Assembly (NCBI GenBank): GCA_965204885.1
Contig: OZ242019.1
Coordinates: forward strand, 1,514,053 to 1,578,052
Reading direction: 5' to 3'
DNA length: 64,000 bases
Source of the DNA: Dehalococcoidia bacterium
GTDB taxonomy: Bacteria > Chloroflexota > Dehalococcoidia > UBA6926
The notes under the pieces are model-generated. The model did no database searches. It was given only the letters and a program-made list of their open reading frames with translations, and had not been told where the DNA came from. Shown here piece after piece: positions 4,976-36,162 of the stretch. Made by a program: the position numbers and the translations under genes. Position 1 is the stretch's first letter. Each line of letters starts with the position of its first letter.

Positions 4976-7900
4976 GTGGGCCTGAGACTCCTCCCACTCG
5001 TGTTTCGGCGACTGCGTACGTACGCGCCCCTGTTGCTGCCCGTTCTCCTCGGCGCCACTGTTGCCGCCGCCACCATGGCCAGCATCGTCATCTACACACA
5101 GGCCCTCCGCGATTTGGGACTGAGCCACGCCATCAATAACGCCGATGAGAGATCGCTCGATCTTGAGGTTCATTTCCAGACTTCCGGTGTTGATCGCGAG
5201 GTCTATGACCGTGCAACGGGCCGCGTTCATTCGAGCGTGTCGAATGCATTTGAAGGCCTGGCCGAACGGGAAATCTTCAGTGTGCGCTCTTCAACATTCC
5301 TCGTCCCCACTGACGGTTCTGACGGAATCGACCTCGAAGTAACCCCGCGCGCAACCTTCCACGTCCTCGAATCGAATCAGAAACTCCTCGCCCTGGAGGG
5401 CCGGATGCCGGAACCGGGTGTCGTTGAGATGAATGACGGCATCGCCACCGTTGAGGCCGTGGCAATGCGGCAGGGCGCGGAGTACCTCAACCTCTCCATC
5501 GGCGATACCGTTCCCTTTATCCCGTTCTGGGAGGATAGGACGAGCAAGATAAACGTCCGCCTAACCGGCGTCGCCTCCCCCGTCGATCCTGAAGCCCATT
5601 ATTGGGACACCCCGGCATTACAAAGGATGGTGCGCGAGCCGACGCTTCTGAGCACACTTCCTGTCATCGTTCCTGAATCCACCGTCGTGGACATCGTCGG
5701 AGCGATGTTCGTCAAGGCGGACGGCTCATATTACTCACGGTATTTGACGAACCCCACCGAGATTCGCGCAGCGGATTCTGAACGTTTCGCGAGGGCGATT
5801 GCTGTCCTAAACGGTTCACTCGGCGGCTCAGTGGACGGCTACAGGCAGAACACGGAACTCGATGACGTGCTGAATACGTATGACACGCGCATCCGGTTCA
5901 TAGAAGCGCCCATCGCCATCATGCTTTTCCTCGTGACCGCGATGGTTCTGTATGCCATCGTTTTCCTCGCCGGCCTTGTCACGGACAGGCAGAGGGCGGA
6001 CGCCGCGCTTCTCCGCAGCCGCGGCGCACGCACTCCGCAAGTGCTCCAGATTTATGCCGTCCAGGGCCTCCTTGTGACCGCTGCCGCCTCCGCTGCCGCT
6101 CCATTCATCGCCGCCGGTCTCATCGCAAGCATCGGCTACTTGCCCGTCTTTGCATCACTGGGTGACGGTGGCCCCTTGCGTGTTTCCGTTTCGCCGCTGG
6201 CCTTTGGCCTGGCAGCCATTGGAGGCCTGCTTGCATTCGCCGTCCTTCTCGTTCCCACCCTCCGCCTTGCCCGCCGCAACCTCTTGGAGGAACGTCGCCT
6301 CATCGTCCGTCCCAACCAGGTCGGATTCGTCCAGCGCTATTACCTGGATGTTGGATTGGCCGCAGCTGGGCTCATTTTCCTGTGGCAGTTAGGTCAGCAG
6401 GGATCGTTGGTCGCGGATGCCCTTTCCGGCCAGCAGGGCGCGGATCTCTTCTTGCTGCTCATTCCGACACTGTTCCTGCTTTCCGCCGGTCTGCTCTTGT
6501 TGCGTGTTCTCCCGATTATTGGCGGCCTCGTCGCCCGTATCGCCGCGCCTGCGTCGCCAACTTGGCTCGCGCTTGGTCTCTGGCAGGTCGGACGGAACCC
6601 GCTATCCGTCACGCGATTGGTGCTTCTTCTCGTGCTTGCAGCCGGACTCGGCGCGTTCGCCGCGAGCTTCGGCGGCACACTTGACCGCAGCTACGAGGAA
6701 CGGGCTCGATACGAGGCTGGCGCGGATGTGCGCATTACGACCGCCGCCATCGCGCGCAACGATGGACCAACCCAGGACATGCAGGCTCTCGTAGAGGCGC
6801 CCGACGGCGTGGCCGCCGCGGCGCGCGTTTTTCGGTCTGAAGGCGGTTTCGCGGCAGGTTCATCTACAGATCGTTTCCAGGTGCTGGCCGTTGACGCCCC
6901 CACACTCAAGAACGTGACATGGTGGCGCGACGACTTCGCGTCCAACTCCCTGGACGAAACGCTTAACGCTGTTGATGCTCACGCGATCGAAAACTGGGGC
7001 ATCAGGCTGCCGAACGACGCCCGCTATCTGGGCCTTTGGGTTCGCAGCGCCGAGCAGCCGGACCCCCGCTCCAATCTGGCCGCAATCGTCGAAGACGGCA
7101 ACGGCCGTTACTTCACCATGTTCATGGGCAACCTTGAAAGCACGGAATGGACGTATAGAGAAGCCCCACTCGAGCCTATTCGCCGTTTCTCATTCCGCCG
7201 CGCCGTCCCCACAATCCAACCTACCGGGCCCTTCACCCTCGTCTCCCTTCAGATCGTGCAGCGCTCCCGCTCTGAAGGCATGTCTGCCGGAGCCTTCTAC
7301 GTCGACGAAATCATGACTCGAACTGCCGCAGAGGGTTCTGAGCCGGTTTCCGTCCGCCGATTCACAAGCAAGAATGACTTGGCCGTCATAAGCATCGGCC
7401 CCCTTACGCGCACGGATTCCCTGCAACTTCTCGGCGGCGCAGGACGCGACGGCGGCTCGTCACTCCTCTTCAGTTGGGGCGCGACGACAGCATTTGTCCA
7501 GCGTGGCTTCTACGCCGGCCCGCAGACCTATGAACTGCCGATGCTCGCCAGCCCCGGCATCCTGCGCGCCTCTGGCCTCCGCGTCGGCGACACCCTCGAT
7601 ATCGGCGTCGGTACTGCCCGCGTCCCCGGCACAATCGTCGGCGTCGTCGACTTCTTCCCCACCATGAATCCAACCGAGGGCGCGGGCTATGTCATAACGG
7701 AGATCCAGGGCCTTTTACGCCACCAGAATCTCGTCGGGCAGGGACAGGAAGTGCAGGCGAACGAAGTCTGGTATCGCCTCGATGAGGGCTTGGCAGGCGA
7801 GGAGCGATCTGAGGCCTTGCAAGGTATCATGCAGTCCGTCGGCGCAAACCAGATCATCGACCGCGAGGAATTGATCGCCACCTCGCAGGCAGACCCACTC

Positions 7901-23713: not shown

Positions 23714-23785
23714 GTCATTCCCGCCCCCTTCGTCATTCCCGCGAAAGCGGGAATCCAGAATACCCTCCCCCTTGCTGGGGGAGGG
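23714..23785. repeat. REP-like hairpin repeat cluster, locus 1: truncated copy 'GTCATTCCCGC', full copy 'GTCATTCCCGCGAAAGCGGGAATCCAG', plus an 8-bp hairpin 'CCCTCCCC-CTTGCT-GGGGAGGG'
   Basis: Perfect 8-bp stem 'ATTCCCGC/GCGGGAAT' closed by a GAAA tetraloop. The same unit recurs at 25717, 27427 and 30501-30670. Confidence 0.8.
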
Positions 23786-25716: not shown

Positions 25717-25743
25717 GTCATTCCCGCGAAAGCGGGAATCCAG
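25717..25743. repeat. REP-like hairpin repeat, locus 2 (single full copy 'GTCATTCCCGCGAAAGCGGGAATCCAG')
   Basis: Exact copy of the locus-1 unit, 9 nt after the paralogue-2 stop. Confidence 0.8.
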
Positions 25744-26753: not shown

Positions 26754-27419
26754 ATGAACCTTTCCATTGACCCCCAAGCCACCGCGCTCGTGATGATTGA
26801 TATGCAGAACGACTTCTGCCACGCGGACGGTTTCTATGCCAAGGCGGCGGAACGCATTGAACCGCTCGGCCTCGATCCCCAGCTTGTGATTGACGGCATT
26901 CCGCCCATGCAATCGCTCCTTGAGGCGGGGCGTGAGGCCGGCCTCTTCATCGTCCACACCCGAATTGAGCGCGACGATTCACCAGACGCCGTCCATCTCA
27001 TCCACAGCGTCGTTGCGCAGACCTTTGGGGCAGTGGCGGACACTCCCGGCGGCCCCGCCCTCATGCCCGGCACATGGGGCGCGGACATTCACGATGCCCT
27101 TGCGCCGCAGAATGGTGAGTATGTCGTCACCAAGCGCAGCTTTTCAGCGTTCTTTGGCACCGATCTAGAGACCGCCCTGCGACGCCGCGGCATCCGCACT
27201 GTCATCCTCGCAGGCACAATCACCTACGCCTGCGTTCTCCACACCGCCTTCGATGCCAACGTGCGCGATCTCGACGTCATCGTGGCTTCAGACGGTACTG
27301 CCTCATGGGCCCCAGACCTGCAACAACCCACACTCCGCATCGTCGATCTCATTCTCGGCGGCACCGCAGCCACCGGCGAAATCATCGAAGCCCTCGCCCT
27401 CGCCACCCACAAGCGATAA
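26754..27419 (+). CDS. Isochorismatase-family (cysteine) hydrolase
   Basis: 'LVMIDMQNDF', 'TVILAGTITYACVLHTAFDA' (the Cys should be catalytic). Confidence 0.8.
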   Translation: MNLSIDPQATALVMIDMQNDFCHADGFYAKAAERIEPLGLDPQLVIDGIPPMQSLLEAGREAGLFIVHTRIERDDSPDAVHLIHSVVAQTFGAVADTPGGPALMPGTWGADIHDALAPQNGEYVVTKRSFSAFFGTDLETALRRRGIRTVILAGTITYACVLHTAFDANVRDLDVIVASDGTASWAPDLQQPTLRIVDLILGGTAATGEIIEALALATHKR

Positions 27420-27426
27420 CCTCATC

Positions 27427-27474
27427 GTCATTCCCGCCGCCTCTGTCATTCTGAGCGCAGCGAAGAATCTAAAA
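27427..27474. repeat. REP-like repeat, locus 3: 'GTCATTCCCGCC' plus variant unit 'GTCATTCTGAGCGCAGCGAAGAATCTAAAA'
   Basis: Shares the GTCATTC...GAATC frame with loci 1, 2 and 4. The variant unit matches locus-4 'GTCATTCCGAGCGCAGCCGAGGAATCTAAAG'. Confidence 0.75.
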
Positions 27475-27547
27475 CCTCCATTGCGCCCCGCCCCGTCCCC
27501 TTTGCTACCATGTGGGAAACAACCCCGCAACAGAAAGCGAGCAAACA

Positions 27548-28429
27548 ATGCCTAACTACGAAACCGTCCTCTATGAGAAACAGCGCAACGGTGTCCTGAT
27601 CACCCTGAACCGACCCGAAACACTCAATGCCATTAGCCGCCAATTGGAACACGATGTCTCCGAGGCGCTAACCGAGGCGGAGAACGATCCCGAAGTCCGC
27701 GCCATCGTCCTGACCGGCGCAGGCCGCGCCTTCTCCTCCGGCTATGACATCGGTGCAGGCCGCGGCGCCACGGTATGGCCGTACGGACTACCTGAAGGCA
27801 CGAGCGTCGCTGCCATCCTCGATGACTGGCGCGACCGATCCCGCGACGAGACCGCCAAGCTGCTCCAGATCTGGGAACTCACCAAGCCCGTCATCGCCGC
27901 CGTCAACGGCTGGTGCATGGGCGGCGGCTCATGGTACGCCCTCGCCTCTCACATGACCTACGCGGCGGAGGAGGCCGTCTTCGCCCAGCCGGAAATCCGC
28001 ATGATCTCCAACACCAACTTCTTCTGGACGCTCAACGCCGGCTACAAGCACGCCCTCCGCTACGGCCTCACAGGCGACCACATTGATGCCCAGGAGGCGC
28101 TGCGAATCGGCCTCGTGAACGATGTTGTTCCCGGTGACGACCTGCTCGAGCATTGCTTCCGCGTTGTTGAGCGCATCGCGTTGGTCTCGCCGGAAACGGT
28201 CAAGATAAACCTCTACGTCGCGACGATGGGCCTTGAGATGATGGGGCTCCGCAACGCGCTCATCCTGAACGACGAGCTTTCCGCCCATGTCCAGAGCTCC
28301 CAGCGCGAGGACTTCAAACGCGAGATGATGGACGCCCAGAAGGAGGGCGGCCTCCGCGCCTTCCTGCAGGTTCGCGACGGCCCCTTCCAGCCCGAACCCT
28401 TCGGGCCCCGCTCACGGGTAAGAGAGTAA
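27548..28429 (+). CDS. Enoyl-CoA hydratase/isomerase family protein, paralogue 4
   Basis: Start set at 'MPNYETVLYEKQRNG' by homology to the other three (the ORF-track start at 27512 adds 12 aa). Same blocks and C-terminal tail 'RDGPFQPEPFGPRS'. Confidence 0.85.
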   Translation: MPNYETVLYEKQRNGVLITLNRPETLNAISRQLEHDVSEALTEAENDPEVRAIVLTGAGRAFSSGYDIGAGRGATVWPYGLPEGTSVAAILDDWRDRSRDETAKLLQIWELTKPVIAAVNGWCMGGGSWYALASHMTYAAEEAVFAQPEIRMISNTNFFWTLNAGYKHALRYGLTGDHIDAQEALRIGLVNDVVPGDDLLEHCFRVVERIALVSPETVKINLYVATMGLEMMGLRNALILNDELSAHVQSSQREDFKREMMDAQKEGGLRAFLQVRDGPFQPEPFGPRSRVRE

Positions 28430-28457
28430 TTCTCTGCACGTACAATTGAATAAGCGG

Positions 28458-28532
28458 GCGGGGGTAGCTCAGTGGTAGAGCTCCTGCCTTCCAAGCAGGT
28501 TGTCGCGGGTTCAATTCCCGTCCCCCGCTCCA
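28458..28532 (+). tRNA. tRNA-Gly (anticodon TCC), CCA encoded
   Basis: Folded by hand: acceptor GCGGGGG/CCCCCGC, D arm GCTC-AGTGGTA-GAGC, anticodon stem CCTGC/GCAGG with loop CTTCCAA, T arm GCGGG-TTCAATT-CCCGT. 75 nt. Confidence 0.85.
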
Positions 28533-28618
28533 CTAACTCCCGTAGATCTCTGGCCGCCAAAGCCGGAACGCGGAATGCCTACGCTTTTACCATTCCAGCG
28601 TGATCGCGAACTTGAAAA

Positions 28619-30463
28619 TCACTCAACAGTCACCGACTTTGCCAGATTCCGCGGCTGGTCGATGTCCGCCCCCCGCAGCAGCCCAATCTCGTACGCCAGC
28701 ATCTGCAGCGGTACCGTCGCCGCAATCGGAACCAGGTGAGCGGGCGTCTCCGGCATGAAGATCGCCTCGTCCGCCTGCCCGCCAAGCTCATCATCCCCGT
28801 CCGTCAGCACGCCCACCACGTGCCCCGCCCGTGCCCGTATCTCAGAGATATTGATCGCCATCCGATCCCGCAAGCCGCCCTCCGGGGCAAGCGCAATAGT
28901 CGGCATCGACTGATCGATCAGCGCGATGGGTCCGTGCTTCATCTCGCCCCCCGCGCTGCCCTCTGCGTGGATATAAGTGATCTCCTTGAGCTTCAGCGCA
29001 CCCTCCAGCGCGATGGGGTAGAGCGGCCCGCGGGCCAGCAGCAGGCAATTCTCATTGGCAGTCAGGCGCTCCGCCGCCGTTCGAATCACATCCCCTCGTT
29101 CCAGCATCTCGCTCACGATGCCCGGCAACCGCTCCAAGTCCAACAGATGACGGCTAACCTCATCCTCATCCATCACCCCGCGACCCGCTGCCGCGTCGAT
29201 CGCCAGCAGATACAGGCAAATGATCGCCGACGTAAAGCTCTTTGTCGCCGCGACCCCCACCTCGAGCCCGGACCGCATATCCATCGTTTCGCATGCGATG
29301 CGTGCCGCCTCGCTGTCCAGCGCATTCGTCACCGCCACGCAGTCTGCGCCGAGGCCCGATGCGTGTTCCAGCGCCGCGAGCGTATCAAGCGTCTCTCCGG
29401 ACTGCGTGATCGCGATGAGAAGATCGCCCTCCCCCATCCGCGCATTCCGGTGGCGCAGCTCGGACGCCACCTCCGCCTCAACCGGTACGTCTGCCAACGT
29501 CTCGAAATAGTGCCGCCCTACAAGCGCCGCGTGATAGCTTGATCCGCACCCCGTTAGGATGATTCGCTTAGCCGCCGCCAGCCGCTCGGACAGCCCGGAC
29601 CCGTAATCAGGCTCCAGCCGTCCCGACTCCAAATCAACCCGCCCGCGCAGCGCATCCGTCAGCGCCTGCGGCTGCTCCATGATCTCCTTGAGCATGAAGT
29701 GCTTGTACATGCCCTTCGCCGCCCGCAGGGGGTCGCGCGTGACCTCCGTGAATTCCCGCGTCACCGGCTCCCCGTCCAGCATTGAGACCTCTACGCCGTC
29801 GGGCCTCAGCACGGCGATCTCCCCGTTGTTCAGCGGCATTGCCCGACGTGTGAACGGCACAAGGGCAGGGAGGTCGCTCGCGGCGTACGTCTCGCCGTCG
29901 CCCATGCCGACCACAAGCCCGCCCGCGTTGCCAGCCCGAACCGCGATCAGCGTGTCCGGCTCCTGCGCGCACGCCACCAGGAACACCAGCGCCCCGTGCA
30001 TGTCCGGCATGATCGACTTCACCGCCTCGACAGGATCTAGACCGCGATCGAGCGCCTCTTCGATGAGGTGCGGCAGCACCTCCGTGTCCGTCTGCGACAT
30101 GAAGTGATGCCCGCGCGAAACGAGCAGCGCGGCGAGTGTACTGTAATTCTCGACGATGCCGTTCTGCACGACACTCACACGCCCCGTGCAGTCCATGTGC
30201 GGATGCGCGTTGGCCAAAGAGGGCGCGCCGTGCGTTGCCCATCGCGTATGTCCCAGTCCAAGCGATCCCGAGACGAACGACCCCTCGAGATCGGCGCGCA
30301 GGGCATCCAGCTTACCGACGGCCTTATTCGTCCCGAACACGCCGGACGGGCCGAGTATCGCGATGCCCGCGCTGTCATACCCCCGGTACTCGATGCGTGA
30401 CAGCCCATCAAGCACAATCGGCATCGCCTGCCGATGCCCCGTATACCCCATAATCCCGCACAT
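28619..30463 (-). CDS. glmS: Glutamine--fructose-6-phosphate aminotransferase
   Basis: 'MCGIMGY' N-terminal nucleophile Cys; two SIS domains; C-terminal '...LAKSVTVE'. Confidence 0.95.
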   Translation of the reverse strand: MCGIMGYTGHRQAMPIVLDGLSRIEYRGYDSAGIAILGPSGVFGTNKAVGKLDALRADLEGSFVSGSLGLGHTRWATHGAPSLANAHPHMDCTGRVSVVQNGIVENYSTLAALLVSRGHHFMSQTDTEVLPHLIEEALDRGLDPVEAVKSIMPDMHGALVFLVACAQEPDTLIAVRAGNAGGLVVGMGDGETYAASDLPALVPFTRRAMPLNNGEIAVLRPDGVEVSMLDGEPVTREFTEVTRDPLRAAKGMYKHFMLKEIMEQPQALTDALRGRVDLESGRLEPDYGSGLSERLAAAKRIILTGCGSSYHAALVGRHYFETLADVPVEAEVASELRHRNARMGEGDLLIAITQSGETLDTLAALEHASGLGADCVAVTNALDSEAARIACETMDMRSGLEVGVAATKSFTSAIICLYLLAIDAAAGRGVMDEDEVSRHLLDLERLPGIVSEMLERGDVIRTAAERLTANENCLLLARGPLYPIALEGALKLKEITYIHAEGSAGGEMKHGPIALIDQSMPTIALAPEGGLRDRMAINISEIRARAGHVVGVLTDGDDELGGQADEAIFMPETPAHLVPIAATVPLQMLAYEIGLLRGADIDQPRNLAKSVTVE

Positions 30464-30500
30464 CTCTCAGTCCCCCTCACCCAATCATACCCTCCCCATC

Positions 30501-30670
30501 CGTCATTCCCGTGCTTGACACGGGAACCCAGTGCGGCGCGCAGCGCCGCCCCATGTCATTCCGAGCGCAGCCGAGGAATCTAAAGTCGCAATTGGCCACC
30601 CAGACGCCCTAACGCACCCCACCGCCATCTAGCCTTCACCCATCATTCCCGCGAAAGCGGGAATCTTGAC
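30501..30670. repeat. REP-like hairpin cluster, locus 4 (four stem-loops in 170 nt)
   Basis: 'GTCATTCCCGTG-CTTGA-CACGGGAAC' (8-bp stem); 'GCGGCG-CGCAG-CGCCGC'; 'GTCATTCCGAGCGCAGCCGAGGAATCTAAAG'; 'CATCATTCCCGCGAAAGCGGGAATCTTGAC'. Preceded by 'ATACCCTCCCC', as at locus 1. Confidence 0.8.
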
Positions 30671-30690
30671 TTCGATTGCCCCAAGAACGA

Positions 30691-31419
30691 ATGTACGCTA
30701 ACCTTGCTATAGGTGAACAGTATTATCTCTGGAATCGGAGCCGAATCCCTATGGGCGAAACTCATAACCTTATGGAGCAAGTTGATAGCCTTATCGAAAA
30801 AGGCTATAAGGCGCTGGATCCTGCCAACATAACGGGCAGCGGTAATCGGCAGTTCCTGGATCCGCGAATCGTGGTGGGTTGGCGAAGCCAGTCACTCACT
30901 TTGCTTCGGAGGCTGTTTGGAGGAACCAGCGATTACTTCAGCGAGTTCCAGAACACAACACAACGAGCTCACATACAAGCCGACATGGGCCCCAGCCTGG
31001 GAGCAGGCTTGGGTATTCTGCAATCGGTAAAGGAAGATATCCAGAACGGCCACCTACAGTCGTACCGCCAGCTCGTAGAAGCTGACCTAATTGGTGGTCT
31101 AATGGGTCAGGCCGAGTATCTATTGGAAAAGGGCTATCTTGTAGCTGCGGCAGCTGTGGCGGGTGCGGCTCTGCAGCAGGAACTCGAAGAAATAGCTAAG
31201 CGTCATGATCTAAAGTTGAAGAATCGAGAAGACCTCAACTCTTTGAGCGATAAGCTGTTTCAGGCGGAGATTCTGGATGGCATTGAGCGCAGGCAATTGA
31301 GCCTAATGGCCGGAGTGAGAAACTCGGCCGATCATGGGAAGGCGGAGGAACTCACAAAAGACAACGTGAGTGGCTTAGTTAGAGATGCTGTCAACTTCCT
31401 CAACAAGCACGCTACCTAA
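30691..31419 (+). CDS. HEPN-like domain protein (putative RNase toxin / Abi component); low-GC islet gene 1
   Basis: C-terminal 'GVRNSADHG' matches the HEPN Rx4-6H catalytic motif (nt 31318-31335) within a helical region. The ORF is open from a TTG at 30676; first ATG at 30691; an alternative ATG at 30751 has GGAG at -13. GC is visibly lower than the surroundings. Confidence 0.55.
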   Translation: MYANLAIGEQYYLWNRSRIPMGETHNLMEQVDSLIEKGYKALDPANITGSGNRQFLDPRIVVGWRSQSLTLLRRLFGGTSDYFSEFQNTTQRAHIQADMGPSLGAGLGILQSVKEDIQNGHLQSYRQLVEADLIGGLMGQAEYLLEKGYLVAAAAVAGAALQQELEEIAKRHDLKLKNREDLNSLSDKLFQAEILDGIERRQLSLMAGVRNSADHGKAEELTKDNVSGLVRDAVNFLNKHAT

Positions 31420-31517
31420 CCAATGCTGATTTCTTGCACCATGACCATCATCACTTGGCATAGCAAGCCTTACTTCGGAGACAACTTTTTCGTGATGCGG
31501 AAGCACAGTCCTGCTAT

Positions 31518-32366
31518 GTGCGGAATCAACTTGCCGCGAACGTTGCAGCACTAAACCTCTTGGCACTGCCGAAAAGCGTAGAAACTACGAAGATGTGTGC
31601 AAACAAGACTACGGATGTCGCGTTTCTTTATCTGGACGAAATTTACATGGATGCAGAACTCCCACCAGAACTACAATCCACGTCGTTGACCGGACTATTG
31701 GTGACTGCGTCGACATATCCTCTGTTTCGGGAACGGTTCTTCCGCCTGTTACCCGGGTTTCCTAAAGGTGCCAAAAGGCTGAACATTGATGTGCATGCAA
31801 GTGATTTCTTCCGTGACCGACCGGACAGCGAGCACTTCGCCTTCTATCGTGGCCTCGTTTCTCTAATCAACGAACTGTCCTGCAAGGTCTATAGGAGAGC
31901 CTTCGGTATTGATTCTCCGCCCCCGATACTTCGTAAGCAGCAGAGTACCTATTTGAAGTTCTGCTTTAGGTCGATTCTGATAGCCGCCGCTAAATCTACA
32001 GACGGCACGCAAATATGGCCAGTCATGGAAACCGATCATTCGAAAGCTCAAGACCAGAATTTTGCGGGCTACATCAGATGGATGGATCATGCCACTACCC
32101 ATCTCGAGATGACTGGGGATGGTGTGAAAGAACTGATTGACGAGAATCTAATGGTCGACAACGCCAACTTTGGAGAGCTTCATTACGTTACAAAGAAATC
32201 GATCATCGGGTCTGCTGTTGACTGCCTCGCATATTTGCTTCACTGTCGTTGGCTTGCTGAGCGAGACTACGGATTGACGCCTTACAAGAAGAAACTCGCG
32301 GTTATCGCATCCTACTTGGACGAATCGTTGATTGATGATGATGTTGTTACCTATGTGAGCGTTTAG
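31518..32366 (+). CDS. Hypothetical protein, no recognisable catalytic motif; low-GC islet gene 2
   Basis: 282-aa ORF in a low-GC context, codirectional with and 98 nt downstream of the HEPN-like gene. No Walker, MNT or HTH motif seen. 'AFLYLDEIYMD' is faintly reminiscent of the 'yiDESG' N-terminal block of DUF3800-type proteins, but this is unconfirmed. Confidence 0.45.
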   Translation: MRNQLAANVAALNLLALPKSVETTKMCANKTTDVAFLYLDEIYMDAELPPELQSTSLTGLLVTASTYPLFRERFFRLLPGFPKGAKRLNIDVHASDFFRDRPDSEHFAFYRGLVSLINELSCKVYRRAFGIDSPPPILRKQQSTYLKFCFRSILIAAAKSTDGTQIWPVMETDHSKAQDQNFAGYIRWMDHATTHLEMTGDGVKELIDENLMVDNANFGELHYVTKKSIIGSAVDCLAYLLHCRWLAERDYGLTPYKKKLAVIASYLDESLIDDDVVTYVSV

Positions 32367-32373
32367 ACTTCCA

Positions 32374-32399
32374 CCCCCTACAATCAACACACTAGGGGG
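32374..32399 (+). terminator. G/C hairpin 'CCCCCTA-(12 nt)-TAGGGGG' between the islet and uppP
   Basis: 7-bp perfect stem, 8 nt after the gene-2 stop and 5 nt before the uppP GTG. No U-tract. Confidence 0.35.
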
Positions 32400-32403
32400 T
32401 CAC

Positions 32404-33210
32404 GTGTCCGAATCGTCCGCCTTGCTGCTTGGCATCATCCAGGGAATCACCGAGTGGATTCCTGTCAGCTCGCAGGGCGTTGTTGCCCTCGTTTCCACGT
32501 GGATTGACGACGCCGGGCCTTCGGATGCCATCGCCATCGCGCTGTGGCTGCACGCCGGAACGGCCCTGTCCGCAGCCATAGCCATGAGAGGCGAAATCAC
32601 GTCGATGATTCGCGATTCAATCGCCCCCCCCGGTCACCCTGAGCGCAGTCGAAGGGTCGCTCCCGTCAAATTCCTCGGTCTCAGCACCCTCGTCACCGCG
32701 ATAATCGGCGTGCCGCTCTTCTTGGTTCTGGGCGAGATTGCGGATTTGTTGGGCAGCGCCGCGATGCTGCTCATCGGCCTCGCCATGATCGCTACCGCAT
32801 TCACCATCCGCTGCGGACTATGGCAGGGCGAGCGGGGCAGGGACGATGTCACACCCAGGGATGCAATCATCGCCGGTATCGCGCAGGCACTGGCCGTCAT
32901 TCCCGGCCTCAGCCGAACCGGGTTGACCGTCGCCGTCCTGCTCGCACGGGATTGCAGTCACCGCGAAGCTGTTGTGCTGAGTGTTCTCATGGGTATCCCG
33001 GCGAGTCTTGGAGCGGGTCTGCTTGCTGTCAGTACATCCGACACTATCGGCGGTTGGCCTGCCGTCTTGGCTCTGGTAACCGCGGCAATCGTTGGAACCG
33101 TCGCCATCCGAGCCATCCTCGCATGGGCAAGCCGCGTCAGCCTCAGCCGATTCATCGCTGCAGCCGGAATCGTCGTGGCCCTCGGCGCCCTGATTGGCCT
33201 CCTCGCCTGA
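32404..33210 (+). CDS. uppP: Undecaprenyl-diphosphate phosphatase
   Basis: 'GIIQGITEWIPVSSQG' (BacA signature), multi-TM, 268 aa, GTG start. Confidence 0.85.
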   Translation: MSESSALLLGIIQGITEWIPVSSQGVVALVSTWIDDAGPSDAIAIALWLHAGTALSAAIAMRGEITSMIRDSIAPPGHPERSRRVAPVKFLGLSTLVTAIIGVPLFLVLGEIADLLGSAAMLLIGLAMIATAFTIRCGLWQGERGRDDVTPRDAIIAGIAQALAVIPGLSRTGLTVAVLLARDCSHREAVVLSVLMGIPASLGAGLLAVSTSDTIGGWPAVLALVTAAIVGTVAIRAILAWASRVSLSRFIAAAGIVVALGALIGLLA

Positions 33211-33252
33211 TCCGTTCGCCCTGAGCCTGTCGAAGGGTCATTGCCCCTCGCC

Positions 33253-34614
33253 TCACCGCCTGATCTCCTCCGCCGGAACGCCCGCAACCGTCGTGCCCGC
33301 CGCCACGTTCCGCGTCACCACGGAGCCCGCTGCTGTGTACGCTTTATTCCCAATATCCACGGGCGCGACCAGCATGGAGCCGCTCCCGATGAACGCGCCA
33401 TCGCCGACGACTGTTCGATGCTTGTCCTGACCGTCGAAATTGCAAGTTACCGCGCCCGCGCCGATGTTGACGTCGTCCCCGATTTCGGCGTCGCCTACGT
33501 ACCCGAAATGACCCATCGCTGTCCGGCTCCCGATTCGGCTCGCCTTGATCTCGCCGAAGCTCCCGATGTGAGTCTCACTGCCGATATGCGTCCCGGGCCG
33601 GAGCCGGGCGAATGGGCCCACCGAAACGCTGTCCTCAAGCGTGGCCTCATCCAGCCACGACCCTCGCACGACGCACCGGTCGCCAATCACCGAATCGACG
33701 ATGTGCGTATCCGGTCCTATCTCGCACTCCGCGCCAATGACAGACGTGCCCGTGATATGTGTATTGGGCCGAACGACCGTGTCCGCCGCAATCGTTACCG
33801 TCGCATCGATGTACGTCGAGGAAGGATCAATAATCGTGACGCCGGACAACATCAGCGACTCCAGTGTCCGCCGCCGAGCCACCTGCTCAGCCTTCGCCAG
33901 GTCAACCAGCGAGTTCACCCCGATCGCCTCCTCGGGGTCAATTTCCAGCGTCTCAACACCGCGCCCATCGCTTACTGCGAGGGCTACCAGGTCCGTGATG
34001 TAGTACTCGCCGTTGTCGTGCCGTGGCAGACGGTCCATCACCGTCCGTGCCCAAACAAGGTCGAGGGCATAGACCCCTGCGTTCCCCTCCGGCGGCACGT
34101 CCTCATATCGCGGGTCCCCGGCCTCCACGATTTCCGCCGCCTCTCCGTCCGAATTACGCAGAATCCGCCCGTAATCCACGTTATTTGGCGTCTGGATTGT
34201 GAAAAAAGTAACAGCAGCCCCATCACTCGATTCATGAGCTTTCTGGAGAATCATCAAGGATTCAGCAGTAACCAGCGGCAAATCACCATTAACAATAAGC
34301 AGAGCCCTTGAATCAAGATTGGCGTCAGTTAGTGCCCTTTTCAACGCGCCTCCGGTGCCGTCCGGCTGGGACTGTACAACGAATCGATGAGTGATTCCCA
34401 TGGCCTCTAGCAGGGCGGGCGACGAGTCCCGCATGATGACAGGCTGTGGAAAACCCGCCGCGGCGAGCGTATCCAGGATTCGCTGAATCATCGACACTCC
34501 GCCTACCCGGTGTAGAACCTTCGGAAATGAGGTTCGCATCCGCGATCCCTTGCCTGCTGCGAGAACGACACATTCCCACGCCTCAACTGCGGCGCTAGCT
34601 TGTGAATTCGTCAT
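33253..34614 (-). CDS. glmU: Bifunctional UDP-GlcNAc pyrophosphorylase / GlcN-1-P acetyltransferase
   Basis: N-terminal 'VVLAAGKGSRMRTSFPKVLH'; C-terminal left-handed beta-helix hexapeptide repeats. ATG at 34612-34614 chosen over the 11-aa longer ORF-track start. Confidence 0.9.
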   Translation of the reverse strand: MTNSQASAAVEAWECVVLAAGKGSRMRTSFPKVLHRVGGVSMIQRILDTLAAAGFPQPVIMRDSSPALLEAMGITHRFVVQSQPDGTGGALKRALTDANLDSRALLIVNGDLPLVTAESLMILQKAHESSDGAAVTFFTIQTPNNVDYGRILRNSDGEAAEIVEAGDPRYEDVPPEGNAGVYALDLVWARTVMDRLPRHDNGEYYITDLVALAVSDGRGVETLEIDPEEAIGVNSLVDLAKAEQVARRRTLESLMLSGVTIIDPSSTYIDATVTIAADTVVRPNTHITGTSVIGAECEIGPDTHIVDSVIGDRCVVRGSWLDEATLEDSVSVGPFARLRPGTHIGSETHIGSFGEIKASRIGSRTAMGHFGYVGDAEIGDDVNIGAGAVTCNFDGQDKHRTVVGDGAFIGSGSMLVAPVDIGNKAYTAAGSVVTRNVAAGTTVAGVPAEEIRR

Positions 34615-34697
34615 CAGTCCCCCGACACGTCTTGTGTCAAATATCATCTACGTGACAGGATGGATGATACACACGGGGAGCGTCAGGGGGCGGCAGA

Positions 34698-35231
34698 ATG
34701 TCGAGCGCGGGGAGTGTAACGAGCTACGAACACCTCATTCGGGAGATTCCTGACTTTCCCGAAGAGGGAATCCTGTTTCGCGACATCACGCCGCTCCTGC
34801 TTGATCCTGAGGCGTTCGCGTGGGCCATCGACAGGATGACGCAGGCTGCCGGAACCATGCCGCTTGACGTCATCGTCGCCGTGGAGGCGCGTGGGTACCT
34901 ATTCGGCGCGCCGATGGCGCGAGCTCTGGATGTCCCCCTCATCCCTGTTCGTAAAGTGGGCAAACTTCCCTATAAGACGGTCAGCATCGAATATGCGCTG
35001 GAATATGGATCAGCCACGGTTGAGATGCATGAGGACGGCATTCATCCGGGACAGCGCGCTGTGCTGGTGGATGATCTGCTCGCAACGGGCGGGACGTTGA
35101 AGGCGGCGGAAGATCTCGTCCACAAGGCGGGCGGGGTAACGGTCGGAGCCACGGTTCTGATTGAACTGGCCGAGCTATCGGGGCGTGGGCTTCTGGGAGA
35201 CTATCCCGTCCACACGCTCATGCACCTGTGA
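34698..35231 (+). CDS. apt: Adenine phosphoribosyltransferase
   Basis: 'IPDFPEEGILFRDITPLL', PRPP-binding 'VLVDDLLATGGT'. Confidence 0.85.
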   Translation: MSSAGSVTSYEHLIREIPDFPEEGILFRDITPLLLDPEAFAWAIDRMTQAAGTMPLDVIVAVEARGYLFGAPMARALDVPLIPVRKVGKLPYKTVSIEYALEYGSATVEMHEDGIHPGQRAVLVDDLLATGGTLKAAEDLVHKAGGVTVGATVLIELAELSGRGLLGDYPVHTLMHL

Positions 35232-35235
35232 CCGG

Positions 35236-36162
35236 CTAATCGTCCGTCAATACGTCCGCTACAACGTCATATCGTCCGAATGACGGGATCATGTAGACGC
35301 CGGCAATCATTCCGCGCGTTTCCTCAATAAGTTCACGGGCGATAGCCGCCCCCTCCGCTCGGCCGTTGTCACCCGCCGAGCGCAGCCGCCGCCGTATCGA
35401 TTCGGGAATCACCATTCCCGGGACGTTGTTATGGAGAAACTCCGCGTGGCGCGCACTCTGCAGCGGCAGCACGCCGAGCACCACCGGGAGCGGAAATCCG
35501 CCAAGCAGGTCGTGTAAGCGGCGCACTGGCGCAGGATCAAAGACTGTTTGCGTCATGATGTAGTGCGCTCCTGCCTCAACCTTGCGCTGCAAGCTCGCAA
35601 TCTCTTCGTCAATATGCGGCGCGTTGGGGCTAACGGCGCAGCCGATTGCGAACGACGTTGGCTCCGGCAGGGTGTGTCCCGCAACTTCCTCGCCCGCGTT
35701 CAGGCGGCTGAGAGCGCTGATCAACTGGGAGGATGTCACGTCGGAGAGGCTGCTCGCCTGTGGGTAATCGCCAATGGTTGGATTGTCTCCCCAAAAGATG
35801 AATGCATTGCGTACGTTCAGCGCATGCGCGCCGATGAGGTCGGCGTGGATTGCCAACACATTGCGATTCCTTGTGGCAGTGTGCAGGATTGCCTCCACTC
35901 CCGTGTGCCGCTGCAAGAGGACACTCAACGCGACTGCGCTCATACGGGCTTGCGCCAACGGCACATCAGTGGCGTTGAACGCATCGATGCGGACCTTTTC
36001 CATGAGCGCCTTGAGACTGGCCAGTGTTCGATCGAGCGAGAATCCGCGCGGCGGATGAACCTCCACCGTCGTCACGAACTCGCCATCATTCAGCTTCTGT
36101 AAGAGGGCAGTGGGCTGCCCGGCTGGCGGGATAGATGAAGACATGTCAGTTGAAGTACTCAA
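35236..36162 (-). CDS. metF: 5,10-methylenetetrahydrofolate reductase
   Basis: 'TVEVHPPRG' start of the barrel, 'FWGDNP'; 308 aa. Confidence 0.75.
   Translation of the reverse strand: MSTSTDMSSSIPPAGQPTALLQKLNDGEFVTTVEVHPPRGFSLDRTLASLKALMEKVRIDAFNATDVPLAQARMSAVALSVLLQRHTGVEAILHTATRNRNVLAIHADLIGAHALNVRNAFIFWGDNPTIGDYPQASSLSDVTSSQLISALSRLNAGEEVAGHTLPEPTSFAIGCAVSPNAPHIDEEIASLQRKVEAGAHYIMTQTVFDPAPVRRLHDLLGGFPLPVVLGVLPLQSARHAEFLHNNVPGMVIPESIRRRLRSAGDNGRAEGAAIARELIEETRGMIAGVYMIPSFGRYDVVADVLTDD

Follow-up and report, generated by a model that had tools for sequence, protein, structure and literature searches.

DUF4145-type HEPN genes have been listed as lying "in operon with R-M", that is, with restriction-modification genes (Anantharaman et al. 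2013, PMC3710099), and RAZR, a DUF4145-type HEPN RNase, has been described as a single-protein abortive-infection system that is activated by assembly on phage proteins (PMC13017515). DUF3800 proteins carry a DE motif and a QxxD motif, show similarity to RNase H2 with 3puf_A as template, and act as the effector of type VII retrons, in which a Glu takes the place of the second Asp and the Q of QxxD is lost (the Q loss being reported for VII-A2) (PMC7736814). A TPR-DUF3800 protein has also been found in Cas12a2-linked systems (PMC10910872). Here, we analyzed a low-G+C islet of 1.7 kb (positions ~30676-32372) that lies between the core genes glmS and uppP in a 64-kb stretch of a Dehalococcoidia genome (contig OZ242019.1; hereafter the window). 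Its gene content is two intact plus-strand open reading frames (ORFs), gene 1 and gene 2, which an earlier note on this DNA had proposed as a two-gene toxin or abortive-infection module bounded by hairpin repeats.

Our results point to a different arrangement. Judged from its family alignment and predicted structure, gene 1 encodes a protein of the HEPN fold whose Rx4H site is intact, and gene 2, on the same kinds of evidence, encodes a divergent member of DUF3800 that has an RNase H2-like fold and is missed by the Pfam model. Because the spacer between the two genes holds the remnant of gene 1's ancestral neighbor, a DNA methyltransferase (MTase) gene, we regard their juxtaposition as secondary; as read from the alignments, gene 2 occupies the place of that lost MTase. 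The islet is probably a mosaic at a recombination hotspot, composed of two independent single-gene modules, of which gene 1 would work by an abortive-infection-type mechanism. The identity and history parts of this reading are much more secure than the defense role. The features of the islet, with coordinates in the window, are as follows.

30672-30750, plus strand: gene-1 leader, GAACGnATGTACGsTAnCCTT ... GGAG ... ATG, conserved upstream of homologs
30751-31419, plus strand: gene 1, 222 amino acids (aa); predicted helical N-domain (~1-125) and C-terminal HEPN domain (~126-222)
31318-31335, plus strand: Rx4H motif R190-N-S-A-D-H195, from the alignment of gene-1 homologs
31441-31554, plus strand: MTase-Mrr remnant, 37 codons plus stop; 5' end of an N6/N4 DNA methyltransferase-Mrr gene
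31593-32366, plus strand: gene 2, 257 aa; divergent DUF3800 with a predicted RNase H2-like fold
31635-31640, plus strand: D15-E16 (FLYLDE), DUF3800 N-terminal DE motif at the end of strand beta1
32028-32036, plus strand: E146-T-D148 (WPVMExD), the second cluster of acidic residues, where strand beta4 ends
32220-32243, plus strand: D210 ... H217 (SAVDCLAYLLH), counterpart of the C-terminal QxxD, with Q replaced by S

Gene 1 and its methyltransferase neighborhood

The RNSADH codons on which the earlier note had based its HEPN call lie at 31318-31335, exactly as claimed. A search space of 5.8 billion clusters yielded 13 gene-1 homologs, and R190, N191, A193, H195, and G196 were invariant in 13 of 13. 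Gene 1 alone scored 15.5 bits against Pfam DUF4145 (PF13643; E 0.018-0.019), under the 23.1-bit gathering threshold, and DUF4145 was matched by six of the 13 family members at E<=0.1 (best 0.003). Other HEPN-clan matches among the homologs were to HEPN (PF05168, 3.3e-6), RiboL-PSP-HEPN, and Swt1-HEPN. We call gene 1 a HEPN protein because of the invariant RNxAxHG and these HEPN-clan matches across the family, and the profile searches that the note had asked for support its assignment. As in the HEPN superfamily (Pfam clan CL0291), the predicted structure is an all-alpha up-down helical bundle and an Rx4-6H motif is conserved. The first ~125 residues make up a distinct helical domain in which no family was matched and no Cys motifs were seen. 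Gene 1 is full length relative to its homologs and has kept all conserved catalytic residues; a PDB sequence search with the family profile gave no match, and PADLOC, NCBIfam, and PHROGs yielded no meaningful match for the protein.

Among described systems, gene 1 resembles the R-M-linked DUF4145 proteins in its HEPN fold, its Rx4H motif, its best (sub-threshold) Pfam family, and the R-M type of its ancestral neighbor, an N6/N4 MTase fused to an Mrr nuclease domain. It differs in that its N-domain matches no described Pfam N-domain and its R-M partner is here a stub. With RAZR/PD-T7-4 it shares small size, a two-domain layout, and a C-terminal divergent DUF4145-type HEPN domain with conserved R and H, and RAZR provides a tested precedent for HEPN defense by one gene that needs no antitoxin. 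RAZR, however, carries a zinc finger (an N-terminal Cys4 zinc ribbon), whereas the gene-1 N-domain is all-helical; the motif is Rx4H in gene 1 versus R146...H154 in RAZR, and gene 1 had no PADLOC match at E<=1. HEPN-MNT type II toxin-antitoxin pairs are distinguished by the minimal nucleotidyltransferase, which is missing beside gene 1. The remark that this is not a textbook HEPN-MNT pair therefore stands, since no nucleotidyltransferase match was obtained in Pfam or NCBIfam and the neighbor is an RNase H-like DUF3800 protein.

Genomic context was compared across eight gene-1 loci (window included) and five gene-2 loci. The gene-1 leader aligned with the upstream regions of homologs in L088, L089, and L091 (blastn of 30672-30747 to L089 4923-4997, E 1.8e-5), and this conservation marks 30672-30750 as the probable promoter/5' untranslated region of the gene-1 block. 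Downstream, an MTase gene, intact or decayed, directly followed gene 1 in all seven other loci. L001 retains an intact 585-aa MTase-Mrr gene 21 nucleotides (nt) after gene 1, with N6_N4_Mtase (2.3e-41), Mrr_cat, and NA-iREase1 domains. In L089 the MTase is split (aa 1-112 and 490-576) around an inserted gene for a 226-aa two-transmembrane (two-TM) protein; L002 and L003 keep only its first 48 codons, followed by a two-TM homolog of 217 aa; L088 and L090 have shorter remnants and then the two-TM gene; and in L091 the MTase 5' end lies downstream of gene 1, after which the contig ends. Where the start codon survives, the MTase 5' segment is spaced 21-22 nt from gene 1, and in L088 and L089 it overlaps the gene-1 stop.

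In the window, the remnant's ATG lies 21 nt past the gene-1 stop, which is the start register of the partner gene in L001 and L002. Homology is recognizable to ~31512, with remnant …W-H-S-K-P-Y-F-G-D-N-F-F-V-M-R-K-H-S-P… aligning to MTase …W-Q-N-K-L-H-F-G-D-N-L-P-I-M-R-E-H-I-P…. When a 50-position hidden Markov model (HMM) of the MTase N terminus was run, unfiltered, against all six-frame segments of the window, the single hit was at the remnant (E 1.6e-4, the second-best being 1.7). At the nucleotide level, the window is homologous to the gene-1 loci from ~31001 as far as 31485 and no further, and blastn to L090 and L091 reaches 31485; the 14-mer ACTTCGGAGACAAC (31472-31485) is identical in five loci and the window.

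MTase 5' fragments were also seen upstream of gene 1, in L090 (3701-3802) and L091 (4645-4899), the latter starting 4 nt short of where a DUF1828/DUF1829 gene is annotated to end; it appears that repeated MTase 5' ends flank the cassettes. The two-TM protein was the commonest gene product downstream of gene-1 homologs (L002 6864-7517, L088 5781-6434, L089 6026-6706, L090 5729-6385). These proteins are 217-226 aa long and 46-76% identical, with hydrophobic N-terminal segments that, judged by eye, seemingly span the membrane. They matched no Pfam or PADLOC family and may be membrane effectors that act as partners of the HEPN protein.

Gene 2, a divergent DUF3800 candidate

For gene 2, the ATG at 31593 (257 aa) was preferred over the GTG at 31518 (282 aa) because the gene is called at 257 aa in the database and homologs begin at the equivalent position; the GTG start would run into the MTase remnant ORF. 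Gene 2 itself matched nothing in Pfam, NCBIfam, PADLOC, or PHROGs, and neither it nor its close relatives gave a match to Pfam DUF3800 (PF12686) at the 21-bit gathering score. There were 49 close homologs, and a profile search of 1.84 billion representatives returned only 221 clusters. Across 82 divergent members, Pfam DUF3800 was matched by 55 at E<=0.1, and among 10 tested singly, four (P0103, P0113, P0124, and P0139) passed the gathering score with full-length coverage (23.7-31.3 bits). Comparison of the gene-2 clade with the DUF3800-passing members by hhalign gave a probability of 100% (E 1.1e-39). The top template for the predicted structure was 3puf_A, consistent with an RNase H2-like fold, and the best structural match among viral models was a protein annotated as DUF3800 (E 1.1e-8). 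A PDB sequence search with the family profile gave no match.

The earlier note had found no motif to assign in gene 2, a statement that is superseded by the DE motif, the DUF3800 links, and the RNase H2-like fold. Conserved in the family are D15-E16, H68, R101, WPVME146xD148, Q153-D154, and D210...H217. D15 is invariant in the 82 members and aligns to FLFMDES of canonical DUF3800 proteins; the E146-T-D148 acidic cluster is invariant in the close family, with E146 aligned to the D of canonical PVMD; and D210, likewise invariant in the 82, aligns to canonical IQLAD, where the Q position is S207 in the gene-2 clade. A clade-specific insertion at residues ~157-182 has a low predicted local distance difference test (pLDDT) score. 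The ORF is full length relative to its homologs, and the conserved catalytic residues are all kept.

Gene 2 shares with DUF3800 proteins the N-terminal DE, the C-terminal ...D, the RNase H2-like fold, and the same top template. As in the retron VII proteins, its second Asp is replaced by a Glu (DEED) and its QxxD motif has lost the Q. It differs from that system in that the islet has no ORF the size of a reverse transcriptase and no PADLOC or Rfam match, and from the Cas12a2-linked systems in that no Cas gene lies nearby and gene 2 has no TPR domain. Relative to type 2 RNase H (RNase HII/HIII/H2A), gene 2 has 5-13% identity, no RNase_HII Pfam match, D-E/E/D rather than DEDD, and the extra conserved residues H68 and H217.

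Eleven orphan structured RNA motifs, DUF3800-I to -XI, were reportedly described by Weinberg in 2017 beside DUF3800 genes; gene 2 differs from such arrangements in having no recognizable noncoding RNA near it. The 173-nt spacer and its surroundings gave no Rfam match even at E<=10, spacer folding energy showed no excess on either strand (z 0.6 and 0.08), and no conserved upstream DNA was found among the gene-2 homolog loci; on these grounds a DUF3800-associated structured RNA in the spacer or nearby was rejected. We know of no experimentally established function for DUF3800, though it recurs in retrons, in Cas12a2-linked loci, and beside orphan RNAs.

More than half of the close gene-2 homologs are ~440 aa long and are fused to a Cys-rich N-domain, not to gene 1. 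In P0005, P0007, P0010, P0020, and P0037 this domain spans residues ~1-185 and carries CxxC...CxxC and PRGFP(D/N)LAL, the latter being reminiscent, at the sequence level, of a nuclease motif. The ~185-aa domain had no Pfam match, and a homolog search with it returned only four short proteins. The one of these that was examined, a free-standing copy in L094, is a long form truncated by an insertion sequence element and was rejected as a natural split partner. A phage origin of the islet genes was likewise rejected: IMG/VR held no relative of the gene-2 clade, and viral contigs contained only two relatives of gene 1, both distant (27-30%).

The glmS-uppP junction and its hairpins

The compositional break was borne out by sliding-window computation. 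With a GC of 0.496, the islet is the lowest 1.7-kb block in the window (mean 0.596, sd 0.027; z -3.7), and the 31-32 kb bin, at 0.498, is the lowest of 64 one-kb bins. GC was 0.47-0.55 in 300-nt windows across 30650-32450 and 0.62-0.68 in both flanks. GC at third codon positions (GC3) was 0.561 in gene 1 and 0.539 in gene 2, compared with 0.68-0.80 in glmS, uppP, glmU, apt, and the enoyl-CoA hydratase (ECH) gene. Pfam agreed with the earlier naming of the flanking genes glmS, uppP, and glmU; these and the intergenic elements are as follows.

28619-30463, minus strand: glmS, left core flank; Pfam SIS (6.6e-51) and GATase_6/7
30464-30671, no strand: repetitive extragenic palindromic (REP)-like hairpin scaffold, intergenic, belonging to the hotspot and not to the cargo
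32373-32400, plus strand: uppP leader hairpin, 8 bp, ACCCCCTA/TAGGGGGT, just before the uppP GTG at 32404
32404-33210, plus strand: uppP/BacA, right core flank, with its GTG start at 32404; Pfam BacA (4.4e-43)
33253-34647, minus strand: glmU; Pfam NTP_transferase and Hexapep

Six related genomes, all Dehalococcoidia/Chloroflexota metagenome-assembled genomes, were fetched via uppP, and five window genes were mapped onto each. Amino acid identity across them was 92-96% for glmS (GC 0.650, GC3 0.798 in the window) and 70-88% for uppP. The islet was absent in six of six, the junction being empty or differently filled:

L012, gap of 114 nt: no cargo, empty site
L008, gap of 2738 nt: two leucine-rich repeat proteins
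L009, gap of 1602 nt: 379-aa protein of no assigned family (6752-7891)
L010, gap of 2159 nt: KAP-family NTPase, PADLOC PDC-S20 match (1.3e-89)
L011, gap of 1952 nt: DUF6602/NucC-like PD-DExK nuclease
L030, gap of 1654 nt: Cas4-like/DUF2779 protein

Since one relative is empty and five carry different cargo at the same place, the glmS-uppP junction is a hotspot for varied small cargo. The relatives' cargos are all low in GC (0.53-0.59 versus 0.65) and all on the plus strand, that of uppP. This presence and absence, together with composition, upholds the earlier suggestion of horizontal acquisition. Three of the five alternative cargos (the PDC-S20 KAP NTPase, the NucC-like nuclease, and the Cas4-like/DUF2779 protein) belong to defense-type families, which makes the defense or abortive-infection role proposed earlier plausible, a function that we infer from the company these genes keep. 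The 379-aa cargo of L009 has no Pfam family and a weak PADLOC match to PD-T7-1 (E 0.0018), making it a candidate for another uncharacterized defense gene.

Within the islet no integrase, transposase, or attC site was found (the search for such genes covered the islet, not the remainder of the window), and the cargo flanks had no tRNA target and no direct repeats, the nearest tRNA being tRNA-Gly at 28458-28532, beyond glmS. Cargo exchange by recombination through the conserved flanks would be the simplest explanation. The locus resembles defense islets at core-gene hotspots in that the same junction holds different, mostly defense-type, low-GC cargo with no mobility genes inside; it differs in having one or two genes only, in its uncultured Dehalococcoidia clade, and in the REP-like hairpins that flank it.

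The hairpins exist as the earlier note had described, but they are shared irrespective of cargo and are not cassette borders. Perfect 7-8-bp stem-loops lie at 30506-30526, 30533-30549, and 30645-30664, with an imperfect one at ~30557-30580, and this left cluster aligns with the same elements at the junction in L011, L008, and L009 despite different cargo. The 20-mer ATTCCCGCGAAAGCGGGAAT at 30645-30664 has identical copies at 23735-23754 and 25720-25739, and the same REP-like families occur upstream of gene-1 homologs in other genomes. The right hairpin (CCCCCTACAATCA…TAGGGGG) is assigned to the core genome as the uppP leader because it is present in every relative (six of six), the empty site of L012 included. 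Its folding energy is -14.6 kcal/mol (z -2.0), and the likely Shine-Dalgarno sequence, 4-5 nt ahead of the GTG, coincides in part with its 3' arm (AGGGGG), an overlap that suggests a translational control element of uppP. An integron cassette/attC reading was rejected, as the hairpins are 20-24-nt REP-like elements found irrespective of cargo; the MTase remnant follows gene 1, and gene 2 is followed by only 37 nt with the conserved uppP leader hairpin. A glmS ribozyme (Rfam RF00234) was also rejected for the hairpin region, with no match at E<=1 in 27000-35500.

Several further observations concern the surroundings. REP-like palindromes dispersed in the window include ATTCCCGCGAAAGCGGGAAT, CATTCCGAGCGCAGCCGAGGAATC, and CTGAGCCTGTCGAAGG, as well as those at 30506-30526, ~30557-30580, and 33221-33236; in L002, REP-like copies stand ~170-190 nt apart (5208, 5377, 5570, 5762). 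Upstream of glmS, L008-L012 carry three to four tandem ECH paralogs (e.g., L009 1-4247) that are 68-94% identical to the single copy examined in the window (27512-28429). Cumulative GC skew reaches its minimum at ~34000-36000, and the skew itself, negative up to there, becomes positive a little to the right of the islet; this is a possible replication origin or terminus region.

Competing explanations for the islet

If the islet is such a mosaic, the gene-1 block would have arrived as leader, HEPN gene, ~21-22-nt spacer, and MTase-Mrr gene, the last of which would then have been deleted to a 37-codon stub in this genome. Gene 2, a free-standing DUF3800 protein with a putative D-E / E / D acidic site, would have been placed where the MTase was lost, the junction cargo being swapped by recombination through the conserved flanks. 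By analogy with described HEPN proteins, gene 1 would be a dimeric, metal-independent RNase whose N-domain restrains it until infection is signaled, one that once activated cleaves cellular or phage RNA by an abortive-infection logic as in RAZR, and that may act without an antitoxin. Gene 2 may work without gene 1, as an RNase H-like, metal-dependent nuclease with RNA/DNA hybrids or structured nucleic acid as substrate.

Several points weigh against this reading. Gene 2 has no Pfam match of its own and gene 1 is sub-threshold for DUF4145, such that both family assignments run through structure prediction and transitive profile links. Neither protein matches any PADLOC defense model, a defense role is putative for both families, and the host lineage is uncultured, with no phage known here. 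The context sample is small and could miss a rare true pairing. Shared strand and similarly low GC leave room for co-transfer as one piece, and a promoter/terminator scan of the islet recognized none, so separate transcription is not supported.

The earlier proposal, that the HEPN toxin of gene 1 and gene 2 form one toxin-antitoxin or abortive-infection module in which gene 2 neutralizes, regulates, or cooperates, draws on the adjacency of the genes, their common strand, and their whole-gene GC (0.517 and 0.481), on the nuclease-type folds of both, on the usual need of HEPN toxins for a neutralizing partner where no other is present, and on the accessory role of DUF3800 in multi-gene defense systems (retron type VII, Cas12a2-linked). 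The pairing, however, was found in no other sampled locus: a gene-2 relative adjoined gene 1 in none of the seven other gene-1 loci (L001-L003, L088-L091), and gene 1 was present in none of the four gene-2 loci with gene calls (L004-L007), the fifth, L087, being ORF-listed only and not searched for gene 1. In L004-L007 gene 2 is solitary among transposases, a ParE/helix-turn-helix pair, HNH, DUF4365, methylase/UvrD-PDDEXK, or metabolic genes, and its relatives are in general either alone or fused to the different N-terminal domain without a family. The decayed MTase 5' end in the spacer shows that gene 2 replaced an earlier neighbor, and nothing in gene 2 resembles a nucleotidyltransferase or an antitoxin. 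We consider a joint module quite improbable.

It is very unlikely, in our assessment, that gene 1 is instead the constant member of a system with a swappable downstream effector (MTase-Mrr, two-TM protein, or DUF3800) and with the MTase 5' segment as exchange site. Such a system would fit the position of gene 1 as the first gene in eight of eight loci, followed directly by one and the same MTase 5' segment regardless of the genes farther on; the alternative downstream genes, which are of typical defense effector types; the upstream MTase fragments of L090 and L091; and the identity of the 14-mer. The fragments vary, however (aa 1-112, 1-48, 12-40, and the degenerate 37-codon stub), as they would through independent decay, the C-terminal MTase fragment after the two-TM gene in L089 implies insertion and not a clean swap, no recombinase is associated, and HEPN is normally itself the effector. 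An unlikely reading, too, is that both genes are inert cargo, hitchhiking or decaying leftovers, with gene 1 the orphan of a degraded R-M-linked cassette. Gene 1's ancestral partner is already degraded here, only one contig is known to encode these exact proteins, and the scan found no promoter-like site; against this, both ORFs are full length with no frameshifts or stops, their invariant catalytic residues are intact, and members 50-65% identical with the same motifs indicate purifying selection. Returning to the mosaic of independent modules, the least ordinary residue is gene 1's regular tie to MTase 5' stubs and varied downstream genes, which looks more like repeated decay than modular effector exchange.

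Both genes are new members of known superfamilies, and the islet is a typical small defense hotspot, not a new two-gene toxin system. Current understanding is not overturned: what had been taken for a new two-gene toxin system becomes a mosaic of two known-superfamily genes. The glmS-uppP junction offers a clean natural mini defense hotspot, empty in one genome and filled with six different cargos in others, and the repeated MTase 5' stubs beside the HEPN gene record how such cassettes are remodeled. Being small and free-standing with its catalytic residues intact, gene 2 is a convenient object for testing DUF3800. Were the swappable-effector reading true, the window would be the first case of HEPN combined with DUF3800, and a defined role in defense would follow for the DUF3800 clade. 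If the roles proposed here for the two genes are true, two uncharacterized nuclease families, a HEPN protein with a new N-domain and a DUF3800 clade missed by the Pfam model, would join the candidate defense repertoire of this uncultured Dehalococcoidia clade.

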